From assembly GCA_016928995.1 (NCBI GenBank), contig JAFGJS010000042.1, positions 31,726 through 95,725 on the forward strand: a stretch of 64,000 nt of DNA. The letters are read 5' to 3'. Made by a program: the position numbers and the translations under genes. The stretch's first letter is position 1. Each line of letters begins with the position of its first letter. This document shows, one piece after another, positions 5,873-64,000 of the stretch. Below the pieces are notes generated by a model that was not told where the DNA came from, ran no database searches, and saw only the letters and a program-made list of their open reading frames with translations. This DNA comes from Candidatus Sumerlaeota bacterium. Its GTDB lineage: Bacteria; Sumerlaeota; Sumerlaeia; JAFGJS01.

Positions 5873-5925
5873 GATTCGTAGTTCCTGCGGTTATTTTTAG
5901 GATTCTTTATTTTCTTTCTTCGAAA

Positions 5926-6459: not shown

Positions 6460-6481
6460 GAATCCGTTCGTCCCGGCAGGT

Positions 6482-6694: not shown

Positions 6695-6749
6695 TGCCGC
6701 CTGAATGAGATTCCGCTTGCTTTACGAGAAAACGAAGCGGATTGAAAGC

Positions 6750-6825
6750 TGGCAGGTCAGGAGGGAATCGAACCCCCAACCCCCGGTTTTGGAGACCGGT
6801 GCTCTGCCAATTGAGCTACTGACCT
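6750..6825 (-). tRNA. trnW: tRNA-Trp (anticodon CCA), 76 nt with encoded CCA end
   Basis: Minus-strand sequence, folded by hand: AGGTCAG-TA-GCTC-AATTGGC-AGAGC-A-CCGGT-CTCCAAA-ACCGG-GGGTT-GGGGG-TTCGATT-CCCTC-CTGACCT-G-CCA. This is a clean cloverleaf with CCA in the anticodon loop. Classic location upstream of secE. Confidence 0.9.
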
Positions 6826-21984: not shown

Positions 21985-22641
21985 TTATTGCGAGACTGCT
22001 TTCGCCCATGTTTGATGCGCCTCTGAAAAACCGGGAATGCTGCCGCCAAAACGCATGATGTCTCCGCCGCTGACAGTGCCATTAGTTGGATCATATATGA
22101 TATTGATTACAGCATCCCTGTCCGAATTGGTCAGATACTCCCAAGGATATAAACCGGTTCGGAGATTAGGCGTGCCGGGAGCGGTGTTATCATCCTTGTC
22201 CGGACCGACGGAAGAGACAATCCAAGTGTCCGCGGAAAATCGGAACGTCGTTCCGCTCGGAAGATTATCGATGCTTGTGTATTCGCCAGCTTTGCCCATG
22301 CCGACTTCCAGGTATCCTTCACGATAATCACCCATATATTTATGGGAACCAAACGGATCAATGTCGGGCACCGAAGACATATAGGCGACTGGGGTCGTGA
22401 GAGGTCTGAGCCAGAAGGCCCAATACGTCACGCGCGGATCAAGTTCCGCGTAATATGTGTCATTATCGCCGTAATAGGCTTCAAGCGCCGTGGCGATGGC
22501 GCGTAAATCAGCCTTGACGCGGGATATTTTGGCCCGTGTCTGAAACTCAAGAAAATTCGGCACTGCAATCGCCGCCAGAATCGCGATAATCAACACTACA
22601 ATCAGCAACTCGATCAAAGTAAATGCCTGTCTCCTCTTCAT
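21985..22641 (-). CDS. Prepilin-type (GspG-like) pseudopilin, solo copy
   Basis: MKRRQA|FTLIELLIVVLIIAILAAIAVPNF (class III signal, Glu+5). C-terminal SVGPDKDD...YDPTNGTVSGGDIMRFGG. Confidence 0.85.
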   Translation of the reverse strand: MKRRQAFTLIELLIVVLIIAILAAIAVPNFLEFQTRAKISRVKADLRAIATALEAYYGDNDTYYAELDPRVTYWAFWLRPLTTPVAYMSSVPDIDPFGSHKYMGDYREGYLEVGMGKAGEYTSIDNLPSGTTFRFSADTWIVSSVGPDKDDNTAPGTPNLRTGLYPWEYLTNSDRDAVINIIYDPTNGTVSGGDIMRFGGSIPGFSEAHQTWAKAVSQ

Positions 22642-49602: not shown

Positions 49603-49703
49603 TGCGCTTGCACTCCAATAGGCACTTCATAGCGCAAAGCAAAACGGGCGGCAAGGCAATAAGCCCGCCGCCCGTCGTGATTTTATCGCACCGCTTGTTT
49701 CGC

Positions 49704-50438
49704 TTAGAATTCGAAGGTATCGACTCCTTCATAACCCCGGAGCGACTTCTTGGCGCCGTCGAAATTCGTGACATCGTCGTCGCCCAATCCGCGCACGGGC
49801 GCGGAAAGCATCACGCCGTCGGGACCGCCGCTGATCAGCTGATATGTCGAGGCGTTGAACCAGGTTTCCGAACTGGCCAGCGGATGTTCTCCTGGATATT
49901 CCGTCGCGCCCATCAATTCGTATTCGTAGGGATAATTAAACGGCGTTTCACTGATCCCTGACCGCACGTAATACACCGGATGATCCCATGGATCGAGAAT
50001 TTGAATTTCCGGCAGATCCGTATTGCTGGCATAACCCAACTGACCATCAAGCGTTCCGACTTTCGCCTCGCCGGCGTCGAAGTACGGCCCGGCCCATCGG
50101 CTGCCCAGCGGCGCATAGCGACTGCCATTCAAACTTTGCGTGAGCGAGATATACATGTAGCCGCATCCGACGAAAGGCCGCGTGGGATTCGGCGCGCTGG
50201 GCGCCAGGATGGTGCCCGAACTGCTCAGGGGGTATTCGCCGGTGTCGATGCGGTAGCGCTCAATGCCCATCGCGAGGTGGCCGAACAGGCTCTTGCACGC
50301 CGCAAAGCGCGCGCGCTCAGTCTGGTCGATGTAAATGTTCACCGCCATCGCCGTGAGGATGCTGATGATCAGCACCACAACCAGCAGTTCGAGCAGCGTC
50401 ACGCCGCGCCAGCCTGAGCTTTGTTTTAGTCTTTCCAT
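49704..50438 (-). CDS. Oversized GspG-like pseudopilin, paralogue 6 of 6
   Basis: GWRG|VTLLELLVVVLIISIL. RWAGPYFD. LDPWDHPVYY. SGGPDG...GLGDDDVTNFDG. Confidence 0.85.
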   Translation of the reverse strand: MERLKQSSGWRGVTLLELLVVVLIISILTAMAVNIYIDQTERARFAACKSLFGHLAMGIERYRIDTGEYPLSSSGTILAPSAPNPTRPFVGCGYMYISLTQSLNGSRYAPLGSRWAGPYFDAGEAKVGTLDGQLGYASNTDLPEIQILDPWDHPVYYVRSGISETPFNYPYEYELMGATEYPGEHPLASSETWFNASTYQLISGGPDGVMLSAPVRGLGDDDVTNFDGAKKSLRGYEGVDTFEF

Positions 50439-50486
50439 TTAGTCGCCAGTCTCATCAGGATATCAACGCCGCGATGCCGCGCGTAA

Positions 50487-51215
50487 TTATAAGATGTATG
50501 TCTCCTGCGTCACGGCACGACCTTCGAAATTGGTCACATCGTCGCTGTCCAGTCCTTGGAGGGAAGTCTCAAGCGTTATGCCATTTTCACCGCAGGAAAA
50601 GATTTGAAATGTCAGCGGATTGAAAAACGTCTCTAGGTCCGCATATGGATGTTCGACGGGATATTTCGTGCCGTAATAGACTTCGTAGTCATACGGAACG
50701 CCGCTGACGATCTCGCCTCCACGACAATAAGTATATGGCCCGCCCCAAGGATCCAATAGCATGACTTGAGTCGCGCTTGATATACCCATCGGATTTGTCG
50801 CAGTGACGGTGTATTCCTGCACACGGCGATCCGTCATGTTCAGATACGGCCCTTGCCAGCGCGGAGAGTACGGATTCAAAGGGTTATTGCTCATGCTGCG
50901 CTGCAACGCCATATACATAAAGCCGTTGCCCGCGTATCTGCGGATGTAGTACAGGCTGGCGCCGCCTCCGCCGGTTCCCGAACTCGACGGCGGGAATTCT
51001 CCCATGTCGATCTCATAGCGATAACATGCGACACAAAGCTCGCGGATTTCGCTGCGCGCCACGCTGTAACGCGCGCGCCGGATTTGTGATTCGTAAACGC
51101 CGGCCGCCATGATCGCCAGAATGCTGATGATCAGCACCACCACCAGCAATTCCAGCATCGTGACGCCGTGCCGGCGCCGGTTTTCGCCGCATTGATCTTC
51201 ATGCATCCAATTCAT
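50487..51215 (-). CDS. Oversized GspG-like pseudopilin, paralogue 5
   Basis: RRHG|VTMLELLVVVLIISIL. RWQGPYLN. LDPWGGPYTY. SCGENG...GLDSDDVTNFEG. Close duplicate of 49704-50438. Confidence 0.85.
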   Translation of the reverse strand: MNWMHEDQCGENRRRHGVTMLELLVVVLIISILAIMAAGVYESQIRRARYSVARSEIRELCVACYRYEIDMGEFPPSSSGTGGGGASLYYIRRYAGNGFMYMALQRSMSNNPLNPYSPRWQGPYLNMTDRRVQEYTVTATNPMGISSATQVMLLDPWGGPYTYCRGGEIVSGVPYDYEVYYGTKYPVEHPYADLETFFNPLTFQIFSCGENGITLETSLQGLDSDDVTNFEGRAVTQETYIL

Positions 51216-51233
51216 CCAAGGCGCCCTCTGCTA

Positions 51234-51989
51234 TTAGAATGTGTTCAGCGTCGTTTCCGTCATGACTCGTCCGAACATGTAAAAGATGTCATCGTCGCCG
51301 TCGTTATCGGCGTCGGATTCGTTGTTCCGGCCATAACTGACGATGGCATAACGGTCAAACCGGTCGTCGTTCGTTGTGATCCGGCCGTCGCTAAAGCTCG
51401 CCGTCAGCCAGGACGAAGCCTCCACGTTGTCTGCGGTCAGACCGATCAAACCGATCGGAGAATAAAAGCGATACGGCTGCCCCCAGGGATCCAGCGGATA
51501 ATCGCGTTGAATCAGGGTGCTGCTTTCCGCGATCAAATCGTCCGGATCGTCCGATTGCGCTCCGGCGATGAAAACACGCTTGGGATTCAGAAACGGACCT
51601 TGCCAGCCGTAATAAAGCCTGCCAACCCGCGGCGACTCATCCCGGTCGGACAAGTCCAGTTGGACTGTGTTTTGCAAATCCGCCACATTCGGATCGATCA
51701 GAAAGAACACGGCTTCGTTGTCCAATGAGTCGTCGCGCGATGTGCTGCCGATGGCATCGGGCGCAATATCGTCCAACACCTGAAGCGGCACGTAAAACGA
51801 ATGCACCGCCAGACAGGTCTGCAGCGACTGGGCGATGTCCTTGACTTCCGAGCGCGCCGCGGCCTCGCGGGCGGTTTCCATGCGGTTGATGTAAGCCGGC
51901 ACGGCGAGCGTGGCCAGTATTCCGACGATCGCCATCACCACCAGCAATTCTGTCAGCGTCACCGCCTGTGAATGATTGCTCTTGACCAT
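51234..51989 (-). CDS. Oversized GspG-like pseudopilin, paralogue 4
   Basis: HSQA|VTLTELLVVMAIVGIL. GWQGPFLN. LDPWGQPYRF. SYGRNNESDADNDGDDDIFYMFG. Confidence 0.85.
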   Translation of the reverse strand: MVKSNHSQAVTLTELLVVMAIVGILATLAVPAYINRMETAREAAARSEVKDIAQSLQTCLAVHSFYVPLQVLDDIAPDAIGSTSRDDSLDNEAVFFLIDPNVADLQNTVQLDLSDRDESPRVGRLYYGWQGPFLNPKRVFIAGAQSDDPDDLIAESSTLIQRDYPLDPWGQPYRFYSPIGLIGLTADNVEASSWLTASFSDGRITTNDDRFDRYAIVSYGRNNESDADNDGDDDIFYMFGRVMTETTLNTF

Positions 51990-52026
51990 CTCAATCTCCT
52001 GTTTTGGCGCTGCCCGCGCTATTGAA

Positions 52027-52749
52027 TCAGAACTGATACGTCAAATCGTCGCCCGTGCCCACTGCGGAGGCGCCGTTGTCTCCGGGAAGCCCATCGCGCC
52101 CCAGCGACACCAGCGTCGGCCTGTCGAATTTATTGCCCTCCGTGCCGCCCCACGAGGCGGTTGAAAGCTGGGCGAAAATCCCGGCGAAACTCGTGCCGTC
52201 TTCCATACGGCCCGCCGGCTCCACCATCATCCCCGCATCCGTGAAAAGCAGGTAGGGCGTACCCCACGGATCGGCGGGAAAAAGTTTCGTTTCGATATCG
52301 ACGACCTGCCAGTTGATGTACGGACCTTTCCATGAAAAGTTCGTCTCGTTGCTCGATAGCAGATCGAATTGCAGCGCCGCTTCGGGCGTAGAGAGCTGCG
52401 TGCCGTCCTCGGCGTCGATGAAAATCCGTAAAGGATTGCCCACCAGCGTTTGATACCGTTCCCGGAGAATTCCATCATGCAAGTCCGATGGGTCGTCCGG
52501 ATCATACGCCGTGGCATCGCCGCCGTTGCTGTCGTTGAGCACATGCAACCGGAAAAGGAAGCCGGTGTCGATGGACACGTGCTCCTGAGCGCGCGCCAGT
52601 TCCTTAAGGTCCGACATGGCGGCCTTCTGCCGGGCTTCCTCGGCGCGGTTCGCAATGCGCGAAATGGCCACCGAAGTGAGAATTCCGATGATGACCAACG
52701 CGATCAGCAGCTCGATGATCGAAAAGCCGCTTTGTGTTCTGAGTTTCAT
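52027..52749 (-). CDS. Oversized GspG-like pseudopilin, paralogue 3
   Basis: TQSG|FSIIELLIALVIIGIL. SWKGPYINW. ADPWGTPYLLF. SLGRDGLPGDNG...GTGDDLTYQF. Confidence 0.85.
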   Translation of the reverse strand: MKLRTQSGFSIIELLIALVIIGILTSVAISRIANRAEEARQKAAMSDLKELARAQEHVSIDTGFLFRLHVLNDSNGGDATAYDPDDPSDLHDGILRERYQTLVGNPLRIFIDAEDGTQLSTPEAALQFDLLSSNETNFSWKGPYINWQVVDIETKLFPADPWGTPYLLFTDAGMMVEPAGRMEDGTSFAGIFAQLSTASWGGTEGNKFDRPTLVSLGRDGLPGDNGASAVGTGDDLTYQF

Positions 52750-52839
52750 TCGCGCGTCTCCACTTTCTATATTAGCTTTCGTATTCCCTGGAGTCTTCGT
52801 TTAACGTCATAACGCGGCGCTCCTTATCATCCCCTGTGT

Positions 52840-53634
52840 TTATTCCACATGGCGGATAATATCGTCGCTGTCCGGTTCGCCCAGCAGTCCGCCGGTTCCG
52901 TCGATTTCCCACGGCCGCAAATTCGCTGCGTCGAACGCACCACCATCGCCAGGCAATCCGTCGGGGCCGCAGCTGAAGATCCGCGCCACCAGAAAACCGG
53001 TCTCCGAAGGGGAGTCATAGATGGTCGGGCCCGTGCCAAAGAAGATATACGGCGTGCCCCATGCGTCCACGGGATAACGGTCCAGATCATCGGACGGCCG
53101 CCAAATGCCGTGATATGGCACCGGTCCGCCCGAAGGATTGGATAATAATTCCCTAAACACCTCGCTATACCGGATATCATAGATCGCGATGGAGCGGCTT
53201 TGCTGGTAAGTCACATACGGACCTTTCCAGCGTAACGCGAGGATAGCGCGCTCCGAGCCGCCGTCGTTGAAAAACAGATCGTTCCAGTACGCGCTCGGCA
53301 CATACACATGGGCATATTCCGGATCTTCGAGGTTGTTGTCCGGCACGTTGTCGCCATTGGCGTCAACAAAGCCCGTTGTGTTGTCCAAATCCTGCAGACG
53401 CGGATATTCGCTGGTGTCCGCTTTAGCCATCACGAGCGCTGTGGAAAGTTCTTTCATCTCGTCGATGGTTGAGTTCAGCCGCGCTTCTTCCATTTTTTTC
53501 ATATAGACCGGCAGCGCGACCAACGCCAGGATGGCGATCACCGTCGCGACCATTGTCACTTCGATGGCCGAAAAGCCCAGCGCTTCATTCCGGCGGTTTC
53601 CGCCTCTTCCATTTGCGCCCTGATTCCGTTTCAT
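52840..53634 (-). CDS. Oversized GspG-like pseudopilin, paralogue 2
   Basis: EALG|FSAIEVTMVATVIAIL. RWKGPYVTY. VDAWGTPYIFF. SCGPDGLPGDGG...PDSDDIIRHVE. Confidence 0.85.
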   Translation of the reverse strand: MKRNQGANGRGGNRRNEALGFSAIEVTMVATVIAILALVALPVYMKKMEEARLNSTIDEMKELSTALVMAKADTSEYPRLQDLDNTTGFVDANGDNVPDNNLEDPEYAHVYVPSAYWNDLFFNDGGSERAILALRWKGPYVTYQQSRSIAIYDIRYSEVFRELLSNPSGGPVPYHGIWRPSDDLDRYPVDAWGTPYIFFGTGPTIYDSPSETGFLVARIFSCGPDGLPGDGGAFDAANLRPWEIDGTGGLLGEPDSDDIIRHVE

Positions 53635-53671
53635 CGGCTTTTATTCTCCCGCTTTATTCCTACTTATTGGT

Positions 53672-54565
53672 CTATTGCAATTTAATATGCAAATCATCCG
53701 AGCCTGCATCAATCGAGCCAATATATGCCGTGCTACCGAACTGCTGCTCGGAGTATCCCTGAACAAAGACCTCGTCATTAGGCGTCTGAAATTCGGTTTC
53801 AGTCGGCCAGTCAAATTCCCTGCCGCTTCCCACGGGCGCGACGGCGTACAGACGCTGGGCCTCTTTGCGCGTGGTCTCGGCGGTCGTCTTCGATAATGGA
53901 TTGATATAGCCGCCTGGTAAATTGTCCGGACCGTAACTGACGAAATCAACGGTATAATCGGCCACTTCGTATGCGGTTTGGATGAAAGCCGGACGGAAAA
54001 GATCCATATCCACTTTCATGGCATAAACAACATACGGCTGCCCCCAAAGATCAACCGGCCAGGATACTACCCGTGCATCGTCCGGATTGGCCGGCGTCAG
54101 CACCTGAGATTGAATCAACATGCGGGCGTATCCGCTTTTGCCGATCGCCGTGGCCCGGTTGGTGTTCAGCGGCCGGCCACCGGCGATGTAGGGTCCGCCC
54201 CATCGCGTCGCGATGATCTCGCGGCGCGCAAGACCAAGGTCGTAACCGTAAATATGGAAATCACTGGTCGCCGCGGGCGGGATGGAGCCGAAACCTGTAT
54301 TCGGATCGATAATGCCGATCATAGGTTGTTGTAAAAAGTTCAGTTTGGGGATGATACTCAAATCCTGCTGGGCGAAGGCGGCAGCTTCGCGGTAATTGTG
54401 CAACTCCGCGACGACCGCCTTCATCTGATTCTCCCGCCAGACTGTGGAGATGCTGATCGCCGCCAAACCGGCGAAGATCGACAACAACAACGCGACCACG
54501 AGGATTTCAATCAGCGAAAATCCTGCTTGGCGCCTGCGCGACATGACGTGTCCCATTCTCAGCAT
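53672..54565 (-). CDS. Oversized GspG-like pseudopilin, paralogue 1
   Basis: RRQAG|FSLIEILVVALLLSIF. RWGGPYIAG. VDLWGQPYVVY. SYGPDNLPGG...DAGSDDLHIKLQ. Start placed at ATG 54565 (AGGGA upstream); 54544 is possible. Confidence 0.8.
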   Translation of the reverse strand: MLRMGHVMSRRRQAGFSLIEILVVALLLSIFAGLAAISISTVWRENQMKAVVAELHNYREAAAFAQQDLSIIPKLNFLQQPMIGIIDPNTGFGSIPPAATSDFHIYGYDLGLARREIIATRWGGPYIAGGRPLNTNRATAIGKSGYARMLIQSQVLTPANPDDARVVSWPVDLWGQPYVVYAMKVDMDLFRPAFIQTAYEVADYTVDFVSYGPDNLPGGYINPLSKTTAETTRKEAQRLYAVAPVGSGREFDWPTETEFQTPNDEVFVQGYSEQQFGSTAYIGSIDAGSDDLHIKLQ

Positions 54566-54690
54566 CGTTTTATCCCTGTCAAATGTGTGTATATTCCACA
54601 AATTCAAATCTGTCAAGCACAGTTCGGCGATCAATGAGCAGAAACAAAATCTTAAAATACGCCCTGCCGACTCCTCGATTCACTGCCAAT

Positions 54691-57264
54691 TTAGTAAATC
54701 CTGCGTTGCTGGATCACACGTTGCGCCTTGCCATCCACTGCGATGAGGGCCTGCTGTCTCCATTGCAGACGCCGTCGCTGGGATGCGTTTTCGCTGGAAA
54801 CCTTGGGTCCGAATTCCAGAGAAAACACCTCGGAATGCACGGAGATGCATGGCATCCAACTTGCAAAGCGCTCAATTCGCGTCACTTCCGGCTCATCGGC
54901 GTCCCAGATGCCTTCCAGCCGCAACAAGTCCCCCAGTTGCTCGAAGGGGATCACTGTTTCATCGTAATTTCCCTGCGCCCAGAGTTTGGCGGATGCGTCA
55001 CGGCAATTCTGGCGATATTGCATGATACGCCGGGCATGACGCGGAGTCATGTCCGGCAGCGCCAGCAGTTGCGCTTCGCCGCAGGTGTTGATGTTGATCC
55101 GGCCGTGCGTTTGCGGATATTCACCGAGGCTTTCACGGATGTTCTCCACATCTTGCGGCGTAATTGCCAGGCGCGCCCATTCCGCTGCCGTTTCGACGGA
55201 CGCCCCCGCAGCTGTCACAGCTTGCAATTTGGGCAGTTCTTCCAGCGTGAAAATGTCGATAATGCGCGAATCGATGCGATTGGCGCTGTCATTCTCAATC
55301 GTTGGATAGCGCCATCCGAGCGGCAGATCTTCATCGCTGATATAGCCGCAATACACCAGCAGCGCGTCCGCAGGCGAGGTGAATGGGCGGTCGCGCAAGG
55401 GATTGACTTCAAAGGCGTCCTGGTTTTGAAAATCGTCGCTGTCCTGATCCACGTAATTCACCTCGAACGGCGTGATCGGCAGACGCGAGAGATATTGCAA
55501 ACGGGGATCGCCGCGTTGCAGGCTGCGGCTGGCGCCGTCGAAGGCGCCGTTGGAATACGGCGCGTAATCCAGCAAATGGCCTTCTGTATCGTAAAGCGCT
55601 ACGGCTCCGGTGTCGTTGGGGATCGTAAGCGCCTCGAATTCGATCAGTTGGCGTTCTATTCCGCTGCGCACCATGCCCGTGATGTCGTAAAAACTTCCCG
55701 CAGTCGGATCATCATCTTCCTCGGCGTCGTCCGATTCCTCGTAATTGTCCGTCACGATCAGGAAGCCTTGCGGCGGCAATGTGCCGCGCAGCGGATAGCG
55801 GCCGGAGCCAGTGTCCAGCCAGATGCCCGTCAAGTCGAGCGAAACGGCATATGGATTGTAGATTTCGACATATTCGCCCCGATCGCCGAGTTCATCGCTC
55901 GTTGTCGCATCGGAGTAGATTTCGTTGATCACGGGATTGATCTCCACCCCAAGGATCGGCTGCCCCGTATTATTCGGATTGGGCAGTTGAGTGGGAACAT
56001 GGTCGGGATCGCGCCAGTCGATTAAATTCGCGGTCCATTGAACCAGCAGGGCTTCATCCTTGTCCGGCTGCGCCCGGCGAATCGCCTCGAGGATTTCATC
56101 CGCGGTTGAGTAATTCAGCGACACCGGCGAGATTCGCTCCGGAGTTTGTCCGTCATAGGTTTTCGCGATCAGCCTGCCGGTGCTATGCACCGTGAAATGC
56201 TTCTCCAGCGCTTTATAGATTTCCGGCGTCACGCCTTCAATGTCGCGCAATTCCTCAATTGTGAGGAACAGACGATCGTCGCCGCGTGGCTGTGAGCGCG
56301 GATCGAAGGCCGCCTCATCCGCCTCATCCACGCTCTCGCCGTCTTCATCGACTTTGCCGTTGCAGTTATCGTCGATCCAGTTGCTTTCCAGGCTTTCATC
56401 CGCGTCATCGGCATTGCCGTCCATATTCTGATCCAGGCCGTCGTTGCGCATCGAAAACAGGATTTCTCCCGGGTTGTCTGCGCGGCCGTCAAGGTCGTCG
56501 CCGGCAGCATTAGCGATCAGGCTGGTTCCCTGGCTGGAGCCGTCGCCGTCGTCGTCCACTCCAGCCTTGCCAGGCTGCCCGTCCGGGCCGTAGCGGAACG
56601 CCAAGATGCGGCGCGCCAGCGCCTTGGCCAAAGCAGAGTTGTCAATCCCTTCGGCTTTAAGGGCTTGATCCAGAGCGTCCGTAAGGCGCACCCGAGGCTT
56701 CTGATACAAAATGCCATCCTGGCGGTTTTCGCTGAAATCGGACCACATGCCCAGCGTATTCAGGTCGAACTTGCCGCTTTCATCCTCCACTTCGTAAATC
56801 ACACAGGGCGCTTCGCGGAAGCTTTCCTCCATCAGCTGCGCCCGCGTCGGACTGGACGAAGGCATGCTGAATTGCGCGGAGCGAAGAGAATCGGTTTGCG
56901 TCGAAGCGCTGTAATCAAGCGCCGTCATACGGCTGGTTTTCGTGGCTGCGCTGGCGCTGCTGAGCTGCAGCGGAAGCGGCTTGAGCTGGCTCCAGAGCTG
57001 CGTGTCGGCCACGACATCCATGCGCGAAATCAAGGGCGCCGCCACGGCCGCGCCCGACACTGAAGCGGCTTGATCCTGCGTGGACTTGCCATATTCATCC
57101 GCCGCGATGAGATCAAGCTGGGATGTGTACGTGAGCACAGAGGCGACAAGGAACAATACGCTCAGGATCGCCAGCACGATGATAAACGTCGCGCCGCGCC
57201 GTCCTTGCCGCCGGTCATGTCTGCTTCGTGTCAACATTGCTCCCATCTTTTCTCGCGACTTCAA
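54691..57264 (-). CDS. Giant GspK-like minor pseudopilin with acidic Ca-binding-type repeats, a lamin-tail domain (LTD) and helix-hairpin-helix motifs
   Basis: 857 aa. N-terminus RRGATFIIVLAILSVLFLVASVL (pseudopilin helix lacking Glu+5, as in GspK). DDDGDG / DQNMDGNADDADE...DDNCNGKVDEDGESVDE. LTD-like VINEIYSD...GEYVEIYNPYAVSLDLTGIWLDTGSGRYPLRGTLPPQGFLIVTDN. HhH-like LTIEELRDIEGVTPEIYKAL and NTCGEAQLLALPDMTPRHARRIMQYR. Confidence 0.7.
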   Translation of the reverse strand: MKSREKMGAMLTRSRHDRRQGRRGATFIIVLAILSVLFLVASVLTYTSQLDLIAADEYGKSTQDQAASVSGAAVAAPLISRMDVVADTQLWSQLKPLPLQLSSASAATKTSRMTALDYSASTQTDSLRSAQFSMPSSSPTRAQLMEESFREAPCVIYEVEDESGKFDLNTLGMWSDFSENRQDGILYQKPRVRLTDALDQALKAEGIDNSALAKALARRILAFRYGPDGQPGKAGVDDDGDGSSQGTSLIANAAGDDLDGRADNPGEILFSMRNDGLDQNMDGNADDADESLESNWIDDNCNGKVDEDGESVDEADEAAFDPRSQPRGDDRLFLTIEELRDIEGVTPEIYKALEKHFTVHSTGRLIAKTYDGQTPERISPVSLNYSTADEILEAIRRAQPDKDEALLVQWTANLIDWRDPDHVPTQLPNPNNTGQPILGVEINPVINEIYSDATTSDELGDRGEYVEIYNPYAVSLDLTGIWLDTGSGRYPLRGTLPPQGFLIVTDNYEESDDAEEDDDPTAGSFYDITGMVRSGIERQLIEFEALTIPNDTGAVALYDTEGHLLDYAPYSNGAFDGASRSLQRGDPRLQYLSRLPITPFEVNYVDQDSDDFQNQDAFEVNPLRDRPFTSPADALLVYCGYISDEDLPLGWRYPTIENDSANRIDSRIIDIFTLEELPKLQAVTAAGASVETAAEWARLAITPQDVENIRESLGEYPQTHGRININTCGEAQLLALPDMTPRHARRIMQYRQNCRDASAKLWAQGNYDETVIPFEQLGDLLRLEGIWDADEPEVTRIERFASWMPCISVHSEVFSLEFGPKVSSENASQRRRLQWRQQALIAVDGKAQRVIQQRRIY

Positions 57265-57274
57265 AGCACCGGTC

Positions 57275-58216
57275 TTATGGATACATCGATCGAAGCTGAT
57301 CGTAACCGGTCGTATTGGTGATCTGTTCGATCGTCACCATGGTCGAAAGCCTCATTGTTTCAATCGGCGACGCCAGACTCAGGTCGATATCCTCCAGCGG
57401 TTTGACGCCGACGTAAATCTCCAGGTCGAACCGCACGGCGGCCGGCAGAGGAAAATGTGGATAATTGAGACTGGCATAGCCGTTGGAATCCCAATCCTCC
57501 ACCCAGTGCGGCGGCCAATTCGAAGCGGGACGACCGCCTCCTTCTTCCAGGACGTTCCCATCGAAAAACAGCATATTGAAGGAAAGCACATCGAAAGCCA
57601 TCGGCTCCGTAATGATCAGAGGCTGTGGATTCCGGCCGACATTGTAGTCGCTGGTCTTGAGCAGCACATGGTCCTGATCGTCAAAAGAACCGATGAAATA
57701 CGTGATCTCCCGGTCGAAATTATCATTGCCGGGATTAGCGTCGGACGAGGAGTAAAACCTCACGCGGTCTTCGCCAAACAAACAATCCTCATCCACTCTC
57801 TCGTCGCTCATATCCACCTGACCCAGAAACAGCTCGCGCTCGTATTCGAACCAGATCGCAATATGGCGGTCGATCCAGTCGCCGTCCTCATCCGCGCCGT
57901 TGCGCAGCTCCTCGTCGGCATGGCCGTCGCCGTCGTTATCCACGCCGTCGCCCCACGTCAAGGTCTGATTGACTGCGTAGAAGCTCTTGTCGACGTCCAG
58001 CAGGTTGATTTTCGCGGCGCGCATTTCAGCCGCCATGCTTTGCAGCGCCGCGCGGGCGTTATTGATTGCGCGAACCCGCCGTTCGGCGACGTCCGTGGCG
58101 CGGGTGATCTGGACGAAGGCGGCCGTCGTCGCCGAAAGAAACGTCAGCGACATCAGAATCGCCACCAGCAATTCCACCACTGTCATGCCCCGCCATGTTC
58201 CGCGCGTTCTCAGCAT
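57275..58216 (-). CDS. GspJ-like minor pseudopilin with an acidic DxDxDG insertion
   Basis: TWRG|MTVVELLVAILMSLTFL. 313 aa. Insertion GDGVDNDGDGHADEELRNGADEDGDWID. Position is immediately upstream of the K-like gene. Confidence 0.7.
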   Translation of the reverse strand: MLRTRGTWRGMTVVELLVAILMSLTFLSATTAAFVQITRATDVAERRVRAINNARAALQSMAAEMRAAKINLLDVDKSFYAVNQTLTWGDGVDNDGDGHADEELRNGADEDGDWIDRHIAIWFEYERELFLGQVDMSDERVDEDCLFGEDRVRFYSSSDANPGNDNFDREITYFIGSFDDQDHVLLKTSDYNVGRNPQPLIITEPMAFDVLSFNMLFFDGNVLEEGGGRPASNWPPHWVEDWDSNGYASLNYPHFPLPAAVRFDLEIYVGVKPLEDIDLSLASPIETMRLSTMVTIEQITNTTGYDQLRSMYP

Positions 58217-58274
58217 TGTCGCTCTGCATCCGCCGGATTGTTCCTCGACACCGGCATCTCCTCATCAATCTATG

Positions 58275-58763
58275 TCATTCGCCAAATCGCAACTCATATA
58301 AAACGTCCCGAGACGGACGAAAATCGGTCGAATATCGAACAATCACTCGCGCCACTCCGATGTCGTCGCGCGGATCGCCGGAATCATCAATGGGATCGAG
58401 CAGCGACACGCCGCTGAACTGATAAGACAGTTTCGGCTCATCGGGAAAGGGCAGCGGTCTTGTTGGCCTTGTCAATGCGCGAATTTCTTCGAGCTTGGTG
58501 TGACCGAGATCATCGTACAGCCGGATTTCCTCCGCTTTCAACTGCGCCAGCGCCACGGCCTTGGTGCGATACATCGCCTCGTATTTCTGTTCGACGGCGC
58601 GCGGGAAGTATATGGCGATCATCAGCACGCCCGCCAGCAGCGCCATCAAACTCACCAGCACCTCCAAAAGGGAGAATCCGGCTGTTCCGCGCCTCTGCAT
58701 CCATCGCAGGCGGTCCGCCGGGTTCTTTTTCCCCTGCTGAAATGTCTTGTTCATGCGCTGCAT
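58275..58763 (-). CDS. GspI-like minor pseudopilin
   Basis: RGTAG|FSLLEVLVSLMALLAGVLMIAI. Mature length ~130 aa. Start placed at MQRMNK... (58763) to avoid overlap with the upstream gene; the track ORF extends to 58814. Confidence 0.65.
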   Translation of the reverse strand: MQRMNKTFQQGKKNPADRLRWMQRRGTAGFSLLEVLVSLMALLAGVLMIAIYFPRAVEQKYEAMYRTKAVALAQLKAEEIRLYDDLGHTKLEEIRALTRPTRPLPFPDEPKLSYQFSGVSLLDPIDDSGDPRDDIGVARVIVRYSTDFRPSRDVLYELRFGE

Positions 58764-58788
58764 GGGTCGCGTCTGCGTTCCTTTCGCT

Positions 58789-59385
58789 CTAACGCCGTTC
58801 TTTTTCAAACACATGGGCGCGGGCGGTCGATGAATAGAGCTTCACGGTGTATATATTCGTGTCCGTCAACGGATCCTTTGTGTTTTGGATCAAATGCAAG
58901 ACTGCGTAATCGCTCGTGCCGCTTGGATTGAAAAAAATGTCGATCATCTCGTCCGAGTAAGGATAGGCGTAATCGGTGGTCCGGCCGTCGCCCAGGGTGG
59001 AATCAAAAAGCCGCTGGACGCTTGCATCCTCCACACGCACCAGGACAGGCAGTGTTTTTTCCGTCACGACGTGCGGTTTGTATAGCGCGAGCTGCGGCGT
59101 TCCGCTCGTTGTATCCAGCTGATATTCATCCAGCCAGAAGGTTCCTGTGGCAAGGTGTATCCGGACGGCGAAAAAATTACCCCGGCGCATCGCCAGCGTC
59201 CGCGCCAGATCCATCGATTGTTTCAGATTTTGCGCCCCTTCATGCAACCGCAATTGAATGCGCGTCTCCCGGTAAACCAGCACGCCCATGGTGGACATGA
59301 TCGAAATGATCAGCAACACCACGGCCACTTCCGTGAACGTCAAACCGTGTGAAGCTGTTTTTTTCGGGAGGCCCAATCCTTGCAC
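58789..59385 (-). CDS. GspH-like minor pseudopilin
   Basis: GTG start. KKTASHG|LTFTEVAVVLLIISIMSTMGVLV. 198 aa. First gene after the spacer that follows gspF. Confidence 0.65.
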   Translation of the reverse strand: MQGLGLPKKTASHGLTFTEVAVVLLIISIMSTMGVLVYRETRIQLRLHEGAQNLKQSMDLARTLAMRRGNFFAVRIHLATGTFWLDEYQLDTTSGTPQLALYKPHVVTEKTLPVLVRVEDASVQRLFDSTLGDGRTTDYAYPYSDEMIDIFFNPSGTSDYAVLHLIQNTKDPLTDTNIYTVKLYSSTARAHVFEKERR

Positions 59386-59550
59386 GGACAGTCACTCTCA
59401 GAATCAAAATGATGAATTCGCGCCAATAATTGCGAGCTGCGGTTGCGCATCGCAACTGCGATGGTACGATGCAAAACAGTCGCACGTGGCGCTTATCCGG
59501 CGCCCGCGTATTGGTCCAGCCGATGCGTAGCGCCATATTACTACATGATT

Positions 59551-59579
59551 TATATATACCCGTAGGAGGCCTGCGTCAA
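59551..59579 (-). promoter_or_regulatory. Sigma70-like promoter candidate for the pseudopilin operon, TTGACG-17 nt-TATATA
   Basis: Minus strand reads cgTTGACGcaggcctcctacgggtaTATATAaatc, ~165 nt upstream of the GTG of the gspH-like gene. Motif match only. Confidence 0.35.
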
Positions 59580-59817
59580 CGAAACAATCATGCAATCTCG
59601 CATATTTCCAAACCAATCAGACAACTCCAGATTTGAATCAATCCCGCCTCAAAAACGTCAACCGCCATTTTGCGCCGATCTGCAGAATATCATATTATCC
59701 AGCTTCAAATGAATCCTGATATATGGCTAAACGCACTTCAAAAATCCCGCTACGCCGGCCCTTGATCCGGAACGGCATCCCGCGTACAATCATATATTTT
59801 TCAATATTGCATGAAAG

Positions 59818-59850
59818 ACGCCGAAGGGACGCATCAAGCCCCTTCGGCGT
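59818..59850 (-). terminator. 11-bp perfect hairpin downstream of gspF
   Basis: Minus strand ACGCCGAAGGG-gcttgatgcgt-CCCTTCGGCGT-ctttcat, 50 nt after the gspF stop. The U-run is weak. Confidence 0.4.
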
Positions 59851-59899
59851 TGTAATGTTATTAAAACACTGTCATCACGCGACTTGGCGTCGTGTCTCG

Positions 59900-61135
59900 T
59901 CACGAACTGGGAATCAGCGACGGCAGCGTGAACAACGGCAGATACAGCGCGATGACGATGGCGCCGATGATCACGCCGAGGAACACCATCAGCAAGGGCT
60001 CCATGATCGACGTCAGGGCGTCCACGGTGTCGTCCACGTCGCGCTGATAGGCTTCCGCGACTTTCTGCAACATGTGATCGATGGCGCCGGTTTCTTCCCC
60101 AACGGCGACCATATGCACGACCAATGGCGGAAAGACGGTCACTTCCCGCATCGGCTCGTGGATCGATTCGCCTTCCTTCACGCTGCTATGAATCTTTTCC
60201 ATCGCGCGCGCGACCACTTCGTTGCCCGAGGTGTCGCGCACGATGTCAATCGCCTGCAGAATCGGCACGCCTGCCGTGATCAATGTGGACAGCGTGCTGG
60301 CAAAACGGGCGATGGAGGCTTTCAAGATCAGACTGCCAAACACCGGTAATTTGAGTTTGACCCGGTCAAACACGTACTTGCCCTCGCGTGTTTTGTTGAT
60401 TTGCCGGTAAATGATGTATAAAATGATAAGACCCGCAATCACCAGCGGAAATTGATGCTGCAGGATATTGCTCGCCGTTACGAGCTGCTGAGTCATCCAG
60501 GGCAGTTCCGCGCCCAAGCCGGAGAAAATATCATCGAATTTCGGAATAATCATGATCAGAATCACGCCGACGATGATCGTCGCCAAAACGAGCACGACCA
60601 TGGGATACATCAGCGCGGAGCGGACTTTGGAGACCAGGGCCTGACGTTTTTCCAGGTAGTCGGCGAGCTTATTCAACACGACTTCAAGCACACCGCCGAT
60701 CTCTCCCGCGCGGATCATGTTCACAAAGAGATTGTCGAAAACTTTGCGGTGCTTCGACATCGCGTCGGAGAGCGTGGAGCCTTCCTCGATGGATTTGGCC
60801 ATCAATCCGATTTTCTCTTTAAAAACGACCGACTCGACCTGCTCTTCGAGAATATGCAGGCTGCGCATGATCGGCAGACCGGCGTCGATCAGCGTGGCCA
60901 GCTGGCGCGTAAAAACGGTTAGATGTTTGATTTTCACGCGGTGAAAAATGTTGCGCAGGCCTGGCAGCGCGAGCAAGTCCACATCACCGACTTTCTTTTT
61001 CTCGCGCACCACCTTGAGCGGGTAGTAGCCCATGCCGCGCAGCTTCTCAATGATCATGTCCTCGCTGCCGGCGTCGATCTGGCCTCGCACGGTCCGGCCG
61101 CCGGTATCCAGCGCTTCATAATTGAATTTCGCCAT
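59900..61135 (-). CDS. gspF: Type II secretion / type IV pilus platform protein (GspF/PilC family)
   Basis: Two T2SSF repeats (FTRQLATLIDAGLPIMRSLHIL; FASTLSTLITAGVPILQAIDIV) and three TM segments. Start at MAKFNYEALD (ATG 61135, with GAGGATGAGGG upstream). Confidence 0.9.
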   Translation of the reverse strand: MAKFNYEALDTGGRTVRGQIDAGSEDMIIEKLRGMGYYPLKVVREKKKVGDVDLLALPGLRNIFHRVKIKHLTVFTRQLATLIDAGLPIMRSLHILEEQVESVVFKEKIGLMAKSIEEGSTLSDAMSKHRKVFDNLFVNMIRAGEIGGVLEVVLNKLADYLEKRQALVSKVRSALMYPMVVLVLATIIVGVILIMIIPKFDDIFSGLGAELPWMTQQLVTASNILQHQFPLVIAGLIILYIIYRQINKTREGKYVFDRVKLKLPVFGSLILKASIARFASTLSTLITAGVPILQAIDIVRDTSGNEVVARAMEKIHSSVKEGESIHEPMREVTVFPPLVVHMVAVGEETGAIDHMLQKVAEAYQRDVDDTVDALTSIMEPLLMVFLGVIIGAIVIALYLPLFTLPSLIPSS

Positions 61136-61281
61136 CGTACCCTCATCCTCTGCTTGCGGCAGCTGCGCAAGCGGCATCGTCGATGCTCACGCCAGAACCT
61201 GACGCGATTGAATTATTGTCTCTTATCGCCGCCGGGAATTCAATCTTTTTCTGCCTGCTCGTGCGAGCGGCCTCCCCGGCC

Positions 61282-64000
61282 TTATTTCAGTATGCTCCAA
61301 TCGCGCGACATCGTCACGGGGTGCTCTTTAAACGTCATGCCGGGAGTCTGGCTCACGATGCTCACATCGTCCACGTACCAGCCGTCGTCGCCAAAGCTCG
61401 AATCCGAGCCGAAACGCCAGCGTATCAGCACGCTTTCACCGGCGTATTCCTGCAAATCCACTGTCGCCTCCGTCAGCGTTCCCAGGTCGCCGTCAGTCCA
61501 GGCCTGGCGTCCACCCAGAGGATTATCATAATAGTCGCTCAGCACGCCGGTATAGCCGCCGCTCACGATCGCGTCGCCCAGATCCGTCCATGATGAGCCG
61601 CCATTCGTGGAAATCTCCAGCACGCCTCCGTCGTAATCCCCAAAGATATCCGACTCAAAGGAGTAGGTATGCCAAAACTTCAACATGGGGTGCGCGGATG
61701 GCACGACGATGGGAACTGATCGCAGGCTGAGATCATTGACGCTGTCGTAATCCTGACAATAGAAACTATGGCTCGCACTGTGCACATAGCCGGTGGAGGT
61801 CCAAACCCAGCCGCCCGTGCCCGACGTTTGTATCGTCGTAAATCCATCTGTGCCTGGTTCAAAATCGTATAGCGAGACGAGGGTTTCGACTCCCGTCACA
61901 AAGTGGTAGCAAGCGCCGCCGTTGTCATCCGTGAGAGGGTGCGAGAGCGAGTCTTCCACTTCCAGGTAAACATAATAATGCTCCTGTGGCTCCAAGCCGG
62001 TCAAATACGCTACATATGTCTGACCGGAGAATTGGGAGATGGCGAAGGAAAACGAAGGAGCGCCGCATACCGTCCCGGCTTCCGCCGTGCCGAAAACTTC
62101 TTCGTCGGCGCGGAAAAAGATCGACGCGCTGGAATTGTCAATCTCCAGAATGGTCACTTCTTCAATCACTGGCGGGAGGCAATCGAGCATCGCCGTCGCG
62201 CTGACATTGGCCGTGACAGGAGCACCGCCGGTGTTCGCGTCATAATATGTCGCGGTGAATAATTGCCCCGAGCTGCCTTCCAGCACGCCGTTGCCGGCAG
62301 AGACCGAGGAGGATAGAATCGGAATGGAGCCGGTGAAGCCGCTGGTCGCAGATCCGGTCAGCGTCACGGCCTCCGAATCTCCCGACAGCGTTGTCAACGT
62401 CGCGGAGACGGAACCGCCTGTAGCGTTGCCGTCCAGCACGGTTAACGTGACAAGAGAGGCGCAGTCATACCTCGAAGCATCCAGGGAGATCGATCCCTTC
62501 GAGGGATAGGCCAGTCCGCCAGTGGCGACGACAGCGTAACCTTGATTTCCGTACAGCGCATTCACTGTCGTGCCGTCCACGCGGACGACGTAATCTCCGA
62601 CGGACGGCGTATTAAGCAACACCATTTCCACATTGTTCAGCACATCCTGCGAGCCGCCGGTTGTGGATTGGCCGCCGGATAAAACGTTGCCGAGATAGAA
62701 CGTCGTCAAGTCCGGTTCAATCACAATTAAATTCAGATTGTTCACCACCGGCGCCGAGGAATTCAACGCGCCTGGAGGATCGTGCCAGACCAATGTGACC
62801 TTGAGCGGTTCCGAGGCGTTAATGACCGACACGGTGTAGGCGTCGCTCTCGCCTTGAGCGATGCCAACGCCATCCGCGCGGCGTTCATCATGCGCCCACA
62901 GCCTTCGCGTGTCGCCCGTGAAATACAGCGCATTGTCCAATTTCGGCAGCCCCCACCCCTCTTCATACGACGGATAGCCCGTCACTCCGGTCATATCCAC
63001 CGTGCTGTTCAGCAGCATCGCCTTCATCAGCGGTCCGGATGGAATCAGCGCGTCGCTCGCCTGGGCGTTTCCCGTGGGGTAAAAGCCTTCAACGAAATAC
63101 TGCCGGATCAACGCCGTGGAGCCGGCCAGCGCCGGAGTGGCCATACTCGTGCCGGTATATTCCACTGTGCCGCAAGACGAGCCATTCAGCGCGCTGAGCG
63201 TATCCGTGCCCGGCGCAAAAATCTCAGGCTTCCGGCGCCCGTCCGTCGTGGGGCCGAATCCGCATCCCCAAGGCGTCCGGTTCATGTGGTTTGGCGCATG
63301 ATCGGCATTACCCACGCCCAGGCAGTTCTTCGCGTTCTCGGGAACATGCGTGAGTTCATCCAGGTTCGTCGCGGCAAACAGCACGAGTCCATTTTCATTT
63401 GCCCAACTGTATTGATCGATGTCCACGCACCAATAATTGTACGCCCGGGAATCGTCGCTGCCCCAGGAGTTCGTATGAATATACGCGCCTTCCGACTGGG
63501 CGCGTGGCAACACGACAGCCAGATCGACACTCGACGAAGACGTGTGCGTGAGCTTTGCATTGTATGCATGGCCGGCGTTGTCGATGTCGCCGTTGACGTT
63601 CAATCCCGCCGCCGTGCCGGCGGTGTGCGTCCCGTGATCGCCCGGCAATTCGCTGGTATGATAAGCCACGACTTTGCGATGCGACGGCCTCGGCGTGTTA
63701 TTACTGTTATCCCGGAAGAAACAGCTGTCCAGATCGATCGCGTCGTCGATATGTCCGATCACCTGTCCCTCGCCGTGCAATCCGTAGCCCCAGATACTCC
63801 GCACCCCATCGACGCCCGATTGCAAAATGCCCGTGGCCGAATTATTGCGAAGTTCAACGGCAAGATAGGGCTCGATCCGCCGCACGCTGTCCAAACCTAG
63901 CGCGGCGCCGATCTCGCTCGCGTTCATTTTGCAGATGACACGCGGGTAGTATCCGGAACGAGGGATTTTCATTTCACTGGCGCCGGATTCCTCCAGCGCA
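61282..64000 (-). CDS. Subtilisin-like serine protease (S8) with C-terminal beta-sandwich domains and a MAM/LamG-like jelly-roll; N-terminus probably beyond the right edge
   Basis: Catalytic triad contexts VIGHIDDAID, GDHGTHTAGTAAG and GTSMATPALAGSTALI. The C-terminus reads ...WHTYSFESDIFGDYDGGVLEISTNGGSSWTDLG...VLIRWRFGSDSSFGDDGWYVDDVSI. The frame stays open upstream of the first ATG (63972) to the window edge, and no signal peptide follows that ATG. Confidence 0.85.
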   Translation of the reverse strand, partial: ALEESGASEMKIPRSGYYPRVICKMNASEIGAALGLDSVRRIEPYLAVELRNNSATGILQSGVDGVRSIWGYGLHGEGQVIGHIDDAIDLDSCFFRDNSNNTPRPSHRKVVAYHTSELPGDHGTHTAGTAAGLNVNGDIDNAGHAYNAKLTHTSSSSVDLAVVLPRAQSEGAYIHTNSWGSDDSRAYNYWCVDIDQYSWANENGLVLFAATNLDELTHVPENAKNCLGVGNADHAPNHMNRTPWGCGFGPTTDGRRKPEIFAPGTDTLSALNGSSCGTVEYTGTSMATPALAGSTALIRQYFVEGFYPTGNAQASDALIPSGPLMKAMLLNSTVDMTGVTGYPSYEEGWGLPKLDNALYFTGDTRRLWAHDERRADGVGIAQGESDAYTVSVINASEPLKVTLVWHDPPGALNSSAPVVNNLNLIVIEPDLTTFYLGNVLSGGQSTTGGSQDVLNNVEMVLLNTPSVGDYVVRVDGTTVNALYGNQGYAVVATGGLAYPSKGSISLDASRYDCASLVTLTVLDGNATGGSVSATLTTLSGDSEAVTLTGSATSGFTGSIPILSSSVSAGNGVLEGSSGQLFTATYYDANTGGAPVTANVSATAMLDCLPPVIEEVTILEIDNSSASIFFRADEEVFGTAEAGTVCGAPSFSFAISQFSGQTYVAYLTGLEPQEHYYVYLEVEDSLSHPLTDDNGGACYHFVTGVETLVSLYDFEPGTDGFTTIQTSGTGGWVWTSTGYVHSASHSFYCQDYDSVNDLSLRSVPIVVPSAHPMLKFWHTYSFESDIFGDYDGGVLEISTNGGSSWTDLGDAIVSGGYTGVLSDYYDNPLGGRQAWTDGDLGTLTEATVDLQEYAGESVLIRWRFGSDSSFGDDGWYVDDVSIVSQTPGMTFKEHPVTMSRDWSILK

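Follow-up and report, generated by a model that had tools for sequence, protein, structure and literature searches.

An ordered cassette of nine pilin genes in the phylum Sumerlaeota as candidate pilin module of a type IVa pilus-like filament

What is built from ten prepilin genes that follow one another in one operon when six of them encode relatives of the same pilin, GspG? This question is raised by a 64,000-nucleotide stretch of DNA from a Candidatus Sumerlaeota bacterium (GCA_016928995.1, contig JAFGJS010000042.1, positions 31,726 to 95,725, forward strand), which is referred to as the window in the following. On its minus strand, from 59385 down to 49704, ten consecutive open reading frames (ORFs) each open with a class III (prepilin) signal; they are labelled in transcription order H, I, J, K and G1 to G6 (Table 1). 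A first-pass annotation had read them as a gspH/I/J/K-like set followed by six GspG-like paralogues and had suggested a heteropolymeric or switchable filament that is not a standard type II secretion system (T2SS) pseudopilus. We propose, with a probability of about 0.6, that nine of these genes represent a conserved cassette encoding the pilin module of a retractile type IV filament resembling type IVa pili (T4aP), in which a tip complex of four pilins would be joined by five co-assembling, non-redundant subunits of GspG fold.

The array is as the first-pass annotation had described it, ORF calling and a signal scan returning the same ten back-to-back genes, coordinates, strand and signals. 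Nine of the ten prepilins carry Glu at position +5, K being the exception. Gaps between the genes measure 10-90 nt, as had been estimated, provided that translation of I begins with the Met that immediately precedes the signal, leaving 88 nt between H and I; only with the longest ORF of I would the two genes overlap by 26 nt. The clustering of prepilin signals is not due to chance, because a regular-expression scan of the 64 kb in all six reading frames found class III signals only in these ORFs, in a lone prepilin gene (21985-22641) and in two obvious false matches. Together with the upstream gspF/pilC gene, called F here, and a terminator-like hairpin the ten prepilin genes form one co-directional unit. 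The hairpin starts 28 nt past the stop codon of G6 and is the strongest such site in the region. Within the unit candidate promoters and terminators are not more numerous than in shuffled sequence, the hairpin behind G6 alone being convincing, and an Rfam and tRNA scan of the window returned a tRNA-Trp far from the locus and nothing else. The interval between F and H (59386-59899) is unusually long with 514 nt, the range in relatives being ~70-520 nt (L034 to L063, L numbers denoting loci of the genome scan described below) and mostly 100-250 nt; it holds no convincing ORF and no Rfam match and presumably is a promoter or regulatory region of the pilin genes. Downstream of the hairpin follows an AddA/UvrD-type helicase-nuclease gene, for which a functional link to the pilins was considered and rejected, since this adjacency is not conserved among related loci. 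On a second BRC1 contig (L057:80-586) a UvrD-type helicase gene comes after a gene for a G-like C-terminal fragment (DPWGRPYLLF...) that has an additional C-terminal domain fused to it, an arrangement that echoes the neighborhood of G6 and AddA in the window, but the protein is a different one.

Is this array a quirk of one genome? Homologs of G3 are annotated as Candidatus Sumerlaeota (BRC1), and scanning one genome per GTDB species with a G3 alignment retrieved 54 loci, ~47 of them from Sumerlaeota species genomes; a scan of genome contigs with the K-like protein as single-sequence query gave no match. When the ORFs of the relatives were labelled by their best match to the window proteins, H-I-J-K-G1-G2-G3-G4-G5 appeared in the same order locus after locus. 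In the 36 loci with exactly five called G-type genes 98.4% of the cross-locus best matches, determined with the N-terminal helix removed, fall on the same ordinal position. Nine loci with apparently four genes are accounted for by contig edges or misses of the signal pattern, and all five G-types are retained in every complete locus, G1 being present in 43 loci and the ortholog sets of G2, G4 and G5 comprising 46, 43 and 48 proteins. The comparison of genome neighborhoods, which the first-pass annotation had recommended, hence shows ~47 Sumerlaeota genomes keeping one order: the cassette of nine is conserved across the phylum and not peculiar to a single genome.

The six G-like genes are not six equivalent paralogues but five ancient paralogues plus one old, lineage-specific copy. 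A sixth G gene is found in only 2 of 47 loci, the window and L013, in both cases as a second copy of type 5, which is the shortest G-type and the only one duplicated; the two duplications are separate events. G5 and G6 had been taken for obvious recent duplicates, a claim that does not hold, as they share only 41% identity over 230 aa; for the remaining G pairs of the window identity is 23-27% wherever most of the length can be aligned. At positions 1, 14 and 22 of the mature protein each type is marked by a conserved N-terminal signature of its own: F1/A14 without P22 in G1, F1/A14/P22 in G2, F1/G14/P22 in G3, V1/P22 in G4 and V1/G22 in G5, with Glu5 in all five. Since the five types are universally retained, stand in fixed order and have type-specific N-termini, the data argue that all five are needed together. 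Outside of the phylum, a Planctomycetota metagenome-assembled genome (MAG) contains its own tandem array of five prepilins in a row (L059:2262-6611), and in Elusimicrobia UBA4817 the gene for a 241-residue G3-like pilin has as neighbors two short pilin genes, F, a PilT-like gene and an assembly ATPase gene, E (L052:9953-19215); similarity of both to the Sumerlaeota G-types is weak (23-28%).

To which family do the G proteins belong? With precursors of 240-290 aa and mature proteins of 225-282 aa they are ~100 residues too long for GspG. All six have a GspG-type class III signal (Gly or Ala at -1, a hydrophobic residue at +1, Glu at +5), which is kept in 43-48 orthologs per type. The shared motifs that had been listed were found again, W.GP[YF] in six of six proteins and D.WG.PY in five, G6 having DPWDHPVY. 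A C-terminal S.G.(D/N)G...DD block, which had been assigned to four proteins, is present in G3 to G6 and, with a longer spacer, also in G1 and G2, the motifs of G1 reading WGGPY, DLWGQPY and SYGPDN...GSDDL. The profile check that had been proposed gave a divided answer. On PF08334 (T2SSG, gathering score 21) G2, G5 and G3 score above the threshold with 27.4, 25.7 and 22.9 bits, G4 and G6 fall short with 20.4 and 20.2 bits, and G1 does not match; all six remain below the cut-off of TIGR01710, as detailed further below. G1 matches the N-terminal family PF07963 (2.8e-7) and is tied to GspG only through an hhalign alignment to the G2 family (99.5% without the N-terminal helix).

More informative are family profiles and structure prediction. 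The profile of the G3 family (24 sequences) aligns with Klebsiella PulG (5wda) in three collinear blocks, the N-terminal helix, DPWG.Y and SLGPDG, and the SLGPDG...DD block falls onto a loop of PulG. The AlphaFold2 model of G3 (mean predicted local distance difference test score, pLDDT, 81.5) consists of a 52-residue N-terminal helix, an alpha/beta insert at approximately residues 63-140 and a small sheet. In the PDB, each of the ten full-length structures that Foldseek ranks best for this model is a GspG, nearly the whole target being covered, with template modelling (TM) scores of 0.46-0.58 normalized to the target, ~0.24-0.29 normalized to the query because of its two insertions, and E values of 0.37 to 2.7. 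With the profile of the G5 family, truncated GspG structures and PilE of Neisseria are reached in the PDB. In other single-sequence and profile searches against PDB sequences essentially the N-terminal helix was detected, except for weak GspG blocks in G3 and G5. Among the G1 to G5 orthogroups hhalign with the first 28 mature residues removed gave 96-99.9% (G4 to G3, 99.9%) over 144-176 columns in nine of the ten pairs and over 30 columns for G3-G5, as compared to under 13% against H, I and J, so that G1 to G5 share one globular domain of common origin. None of the G-types has a conserved Cys, the median Cys count of the ortholog sets being 0-1. This agrees with GspG, in which a calcium site is used in place of a disulfide bond (see also PMC13081927). 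Taken together, the PF08334 matches, the collinear PulG alignment, the Foldseek result and the mutual homology of the types bear out the proposed relation to GspG: G1 to G6 appear to be GspG-related pilins, not GspG equivalogs, in which the alpha-beta loop is expanded and another insertion precedes the last strands. A search with just the globular domain of G3 finds 116 cluster representatives (E ≤0.001) among 1.84 billion, most of 220-290 aa, and because this domain is so rare the names that the G genes currently receive in annotation are no more than generic, for example 'prepilin-type N-terminal cleavage/methylation domain' or PulG/GspG.

Of the proposed gspH/I/J/K-like set only K has a real family match. 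This protein of 857 aa matches the GspK model NF037980 (8.5e-17, 61.6 bits, under the equivalog cut-off of 130) and PF21687 (T2SSK_1st, 25.9 bits with a cut-off of 26.2), its orthologs additionally match PF03934 (T2SSK), and position +5 is L, V or I throughout the orthogroup. Based on these matches and the missing Glu5, K is assigned to the GspK/PilX class and would be a capping pilin, enlarged by an inserted lamin-tail domain (LTD; PF00932, 35.6 bits, above cut-off) and acidic DxDxDG-type repeats. A match to PF12836 (HHH_3) was considered as sign of a DNA-binding competence pilus and set aside, as it covers the same region in which orthologs match T2SSK; we take this region to be the helical insert domains of GspK itself. 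The AlphaFold2 model of K from seven sequences (pLDDT 50.6) is too poor for a fold search. The labels H, I and J rest mainly on gene order, size, signal and N-terminal matches. H matches TIGR01708 (GspH) weakly at its N-terminus (28.7 bits, cut-off 80), and its orthologs occupy the same position in 21 loci. I, the most conserved protein of the cassette with a mean pairwise identity of 0.51, has a weak N-terminal match to TIGR02523 (PilV; 30.6 bits, cut-off 52.2). The globular part of J matches no family in searches of Pfam and NCBIfam-type models or, with the orthogroup profile, of the PDB, its orthogroup being marked by invariant Asp-rich columns. Direct DNA repeats with 48-nt spacing lie in J (57875-57951) and K (56539-56562) and encode acidic DxDxDG-type motifs (DNDGDGHADEE, DDDGDG), the Asp columns of which are invariant across orthologs; from their sequence these repeats look like calcium-binding repeats.

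Which machine could use such pilins? F of the window scores 396.6 bits on TIGR02120 (GspF, cut-off 424) and ~395 bits on PilC models and is 65-75% identical to Sumerlaeota PilC/GspF proteins. In several relatives (L005-L009, L012, L034, L062 and L063) an assembly ATPase gene and F immediately precede the cassette. Two of these clusters, L062 and L063, have both ends visible and comprise twelve genes, a pilT-family gene (371-374 aa), an ATPase with MshEN and T2SSE domains (638 aa), F and the nine pilins, with unrelated genes on both sides and no further pilin gene alongside pilT-E-F. Immediately upstream of the assembly ATPase gene there is a gene of the PilT/PilU family in L005/L062, L063, L006 and L009, PilT-family fragments being confirmed in the latter two, and by similarity in L007 and L012. 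In other genomes (L002, L004) the cassette stands alone.

As had been claimed, the slot between F and H is empty and gspL and gspM are missing. The pilin genes of G-type all sit after K, and gspC, gspD (secretin), gspL and gspM are absent from the 64-kb window as well as from the surroundings of the cassette in ~47 related loci, including the fully bounded L062 and L063; a short gspG gene, whose presence next to L/M-like genes would have spoken for an ordinary T2SS, was likewise found adjacent to the cassette in none of these loci. The order gspF-G-H-I-J-K-L-M, with which the array had been compared, is however the wrong yardstick, given that pilT heads the cluster in relatives and that T4aP minor-pilin clusters, like the pilin cluster of Thermus, normally have G-type pilins after the four minor pilins (PMC5131608). 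On gene content, with gspC, D, L and M lacking and PilT present in relatives, the locus does not qualify as a canonical T2SS cluster, and the verdict 'not a standard pseudopilus' was a fair one. For Sumerlaeota in general, the supplement of PMC8092238 lists per MAG 1-26 'gspG', 1-8 pilB, 1-7 pilC, 1-12 pilT, 1-4 pilM, 0-2 pilQ and 0-7 gspD genes, usually one pilD (0-2), and also pilO. In the window, an S8 subtilase gene (61282-63972, minus strand; 896 aa with a MAM-like C-terminal domain and no obvious Sec signal at the called start) lies 104 nt upstream of F, filling the place that pilT and the assembly ATPase gene have in relatives; it adjoins the cassette in no other locus. Exact-sequence look-ups with the S8 protease and the called F protein returned no record, and the one contig that was recovered (L001, 16 kb) falls within the window.

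How could the products work together? The single prepilin peptidase of Sumerlaeota genomes would cleave behind position -1, a Gly or Ala in each of the ten proteins. K, I and J with H beneath them could make up a complex for initiation at the tip, as they do in T2SS and T4aP; K would cap the filament and present its lamin-tail domain and acidic repeats there for ligand binding. Below this tip the five GspG-fold pilins would stack through their conserved N-terminal helices, each in a distinct, non-redundant place, either as a mixed shaft or as graded adaptors to one predominant subunit. Extension would be driven by a GspE/PilB-type ATPase acting on the F platform and retraction by the linked PilT, and the result would be a surface T4aP-like pilus for adhesion or twitching and not a periplasmic T2SS piston. 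The term 'heteropolymeric' of the first-pass annotation is plausible as a reading of the genes. Nominating one of the proteins as major pilin was tried and given up, as none stands out by codon adaptation and the best Shine-Dalgarno sequence of the set, AGGAGA 6 nt upstream of the ATG of G4, is weak evidence.

Several observations weigh against a retractile T4aP-like filament. The proposal is built on genes from an uncultivated phylum. None of the six G-like proteins reaches the cut-off of the GspG equivalog model TIGR01710 (88.85 bits; G1 21.9, G2 51.9, G3 55.9, G4 42.8, G5 41.9, G6 45.9), the best-scoring aligned stretch being N-terminal in each of them, and the fold match of G3 to GspG is statistically weak with an E value of 0.37 or weaker. 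Profiles do not tie H, I and J to GspH/I/J or to FimU/PilV/PilW; searched against the PDB, their orthogroup profiles (~20 orthologs each) found nothing past the N-terminal helix. Neither E nor pilT is visible in the 64-kb window, where the S8 protease gene is found directly upstream of F, and the F ortholog of Ca. Sumerlaea chitinivorans, whose genome is complete, is linked neither to E nor to pilins. A role in secretion would fit the ATPase of relatives, which passes the GspE cut-off and misses that of PilB (in L005, 640 on TIGR02533 with a cut-off of 630, and 608 with a cut-off of 676, respectively). Finally, codon adaptation of all ten pilin genes (0.45-0.57) is lower than that of the housekeeping genes used as reference (rplK, rplA, rplJ and rplL of the window, 0.60-0.66), and therefore no gene of the cassette looks like that of an abundant major pilin and the true major subunit could be encoded elsewhere.

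Some of these points would be explained if the cassette belonged to a true T2SS, the periplasmic pseudopilus of which pushes folded hydrolases, such as the neighboring S8 protease and many glycosidases, through a secretin encoded elsewhere. GspG-type pilins with a calcium-loop block and without disulfide, a GspK homolog, the GspE-like score of the ATPase, the S8 gene in front of F and the gspD genes annotated in Sumerlaeota MAGs all are in line with this view. However, T2SSs lack a PilT-family retraction ATPase, the gene of which comes first in the cluster of relatives, none of gspC, D, L and M adjoins the cassette in any of the ~47 loci, a 92 kDa tip pilin with LTD and subunits of 25-31 kDa are unlike a compact endopilus, and the S8 gene is neither conserved beside the cassette nor does it encode an evident Sec signal, which together make a secretion system unlikely. 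The low codon adaptation leads to a different thought, namely that all nine or ten proteins are low-abundance minor pilins of an enlarged priming and tip complex and that the major pilin comes from one of the 1-26 'gspG' genes per genome, for example one of the type of the lone prepilin, whose N-terminus is more major-pilin-like (66.8 bits on a Myxococcus PilA model). The minor-pilin operon of Pseudomonas aeruginosa also ends with a major-pilin-like minor pilin, PilE (PMC5131608), and gspG-annotated genes are numerous in Sumerlaeota MAGs. Yet five additional conserved minor pilins of G-type would be unprecedented, the twelve-gene clusters offer no other pilin together with pilT-E-F, the lone prepilin gene has an even lower codon adaptation (0.40), and in uncultivated bacteria that grow slowly codon bias is a weak proxy, leaving an all-minor-pilin cassette rather improbable.

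Could the G-like genes instead be interchangeable major pilins, only one of which is in use at any time so that antigenicity or function can vary, as the word 'switchable' implied? They are tandem paralogues of one family, and the last position was duplicated independently in two lineages. But they lie in one operon with short gaps and a single terminator; a search for invertible elements, including inverted repeats of the invertible-promoter type, and for recombination-grade repeats found only diverged coding homology of ≤86% over 43 nt; and paralogues of 23-27% identity with type-specific N-termini occur all five in fixed order in every complete locus, where redundant variants would be expected to come and go. 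Switching is very improbable on these grounds. Least credible is that no filament is formed at all and that the class III signal merely anchors or exports surface proteins, in a bindosome-like manner as known for sugar-binding proteins of Sulfolobus, the enlarged domains being ligand binders. Large insertions between N-terminal helix and beta-sheet do make up most of each protein and the organisms are polymer degraders (PMC8092238), but Glu5 and a pilin-type hydrophobic N-terminal helix, with Gly14 and Pro22 in several types, are kept as in polymerizing pilins, the tip set is complete including a Glu5-less GspK homolog, the cassette is linked to F, E and PilT, and in a Foldseek search of the PDB the G3 insert matched no binding-protein fold.

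The retractile T4aP-like filament with co-assembling G-types accordingly is the reading preferred here, and the cassette offers a test case both for the ordering of multi-subunit pili and for T2SS-type pilins working inside a PilT-containing, type IV pilus (T4P)-like machine. In the usual picture type IV filaments consist of one major pilin and a few minor ones. Retention of five distant G paralogues throughout the phylum behind an LTD-fused tip pilin argues for obligatory co-assembly, because the five are kept in fixed order, each with its own N-terminal signature. A bolder and doubtful extension is that they are incorporated in fixed order or stoichiometry, either as a shaft with a repeat of five proteins or as a finite stalk of defined length under the LTD-bearing tip; a bacterial type IV filament of nine different pilins in place of one major subunit would then exist, which has been seen in no T4P or T2SS. 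The cassette also provides a functional handle on the surface biology of the Sumerlaeota, a widespread, polymer-degrading, uncultivated lineage, the pili of which have so far been mentioned only as counts of genes for 'T4P-dependent twitching', found in all MAGs and not discussed further in the text (PMC8092238). Literature searches found no description of the cassette or of minor pilins with LTD, and we could find no precedent for the combination of five distant, ordered GspG paralogues kept phylum-wide, their size and a GspK-type pilin with an LTD, nothing relevant having come up for any one of these elements either.

Table 1. Genes and signals of the pilin operon in the window (positions counted from the first nucleotide of the window).
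Feature	Position	Strand	Remarks
GspF/PilC platform protein (F)	59900..61177	-	first gene of unit in window; PF00482 T2SSF 3e-65
H-position minor pilin	58789..59385	-	SHG|LTFTE, mature 184 aa
I-position minor pilin	58275..58814	-	TAG|FSLLE, mature 133 aa; probable start 58700
J-position minor pilin	57275..58216	-	WRG|MTVVE, mature 303 aa; acidic DxDxDG-type repeats
K-position tip pilin	54691..57264	-	RRG|ATFII, mature 92 kDa; GspK homolog with inserted lamin-tail domain
G1, putative GspG-fold pilin type 1	53672..54634	-	QAG|FSLIE; probable start 54544, mature 282 aa
G2, putative GspG-fold pilin type 2	52840..53634	-	ALG|FSAIE, mature 244 aa
G3, putative GspG-fold pilin type 3	52027..52749	-	QSG|FSIIE, mature 232 aa
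G4, putative GspG-fold pilin type 4	51234..51989	-	SQA|VTLTE, mature 242 aa
G5, putative GspG-fold pilin type 5, copy a	50487..51215	-	RHG|VTMLE, mature 225 aa
G6, second lineage-specific type-5 copy	49704..50438	-	WRG|VTLLE, mature 232 aa
Intrinsic-terminator-like hairpin closing the operon	49643..49676	-	13-bp stem, 9 G-C pairs, T-rich tail

Other genes of the window include the lone prepilin gene already mentioned (minus strand, 218 aa, N_methyl match 2.4e-8), which is divergent from a gene for a GT-C glycosyltransferase with PMT_2 and tetratricopeptide repeat (TPR) domains (22876-24618, plus strand). In Ca. Sumerlaea chitinivorans (L060) a PMT_2 gene follows the PilC ortholog, and these arrangements may reflect a link to pilin glycosylation. 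A 1678-residue protein with CBM6/CBM35 carbohydrate-binding modules and many CarboxypepD_reg/Ig-like repeats (28888-33924, minus strand) and a nearby gene for a GH30-family glycosidase (37306-38724) fit a polymer-degrading lifestyle. At 20029-21135 (minus strand) a 368-residue protein is encoded that appears to be a fusion of a MerR-type helix-turn-helix domain with a ParA/MinD-like P-loop ATPase. The conserved cluster of tRNA-Trp, secE, nusG, rplK, rplA, rplJ and rplL occupies 3252-6825 (minus strand); long plus-strand ORFs in this region (2051-2953 and 3668-4585) have no family matches and are shadow ORFs.

How does the cassette compare to known systems? The prepilin cassette of the Verru_Chthon type (TIGR02596 and TIGR02599, cut-offs 70 and 256.5 bits) was not recognized in it, the best scores being 20.2 bits for G1 (protein D) and 13.7 bits for J (protein C). 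Proteobacterial T2SSs share with it the W.GPY, DPWG.Y and SLGPDG...DD motifs of the G-types, the lack of a disulfide, GspG as best fold match, the matches of K to GspK models and, in relatives, an ATPase above the GspE cut-off. They differ in that canonical GspG has ~130-150 aa and is encoded between gspF and gspH, whereas no gspG precedes H in the cassette, the subunits are ~100 residues larger through the expanded alpha-beta loop and the second insertion, five conserved G paralogues stand after K, gspC, D, L and M are missing, and PilT occurs in relatives. Closer in layout is the T4aP and competence system of Thermus thermophilus, the cluster of which (TTHA1217-1222) encodes PilA1, PilA2, PilA3, ComZ, PilA4 and a PilA4-like pilin (PMC5131608), that is, minor pilins that structurally resemble GspI and GspJ, then a large tip-associated protein, then two GspG-like pilins. 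Thermus thus provides precedent for G genes after minor pilins, for T2SS-like pilins in a PilT-containing system and for more than one G-type gene. Its two G-types are small, however (~110-125 aa mature), as compared to the five of 210-290 aa here, the large ComZ does not belong to the pilins, whereas in the cassette it is the GspK-like pilin that the lamin-tail domain enlarges, and its pilins have no sequence relation to those of the cassette past the N-terminal helix.

In Pseudomonas aeruginosa the genes fimU-pilV-pilW-pilX-pilY1-pilE encode a core of four minor pilins, the counterparts of GspH, I, J and K, the last of them without Glu5, and then a major-pilin-like pilin; these minor pilins prime assembly and sit at the tip (PMC5131608). 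There a single PilE trails instead of five pilins, the adhesin PilY1 is a separate non-pilin protein, and the T4a pilins are disulfide-bonded in contrast to the GspG types with calcium-loop block found here. A functional, retractile T4aP can also be packed from pilins exceeding 200 residues, as exemplified by Myxococcus xanthus PilA with 208 aa (PMC11046646), which is however a single major pilin with another globular domain and a disulfide-type C-terminus, similar to the cassette pilins only in the N-terminal helix. Precedent for a mixed shaft is given by the T4P of Streptococcus sanguinis, built from PilE1 and PilE2, and the two-archaellin filament of Methanocaldococcus villosus, both shown by electron cryo-microscopy to be heteropolymers (PMC10628169, PMC8821640). 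In these systems, as in the cassette, the paralogous subunits are encoded by tandem genes in one operon, but they are two and closely related, whereas the Sumerlaeota cassette would bring together five distant ones.

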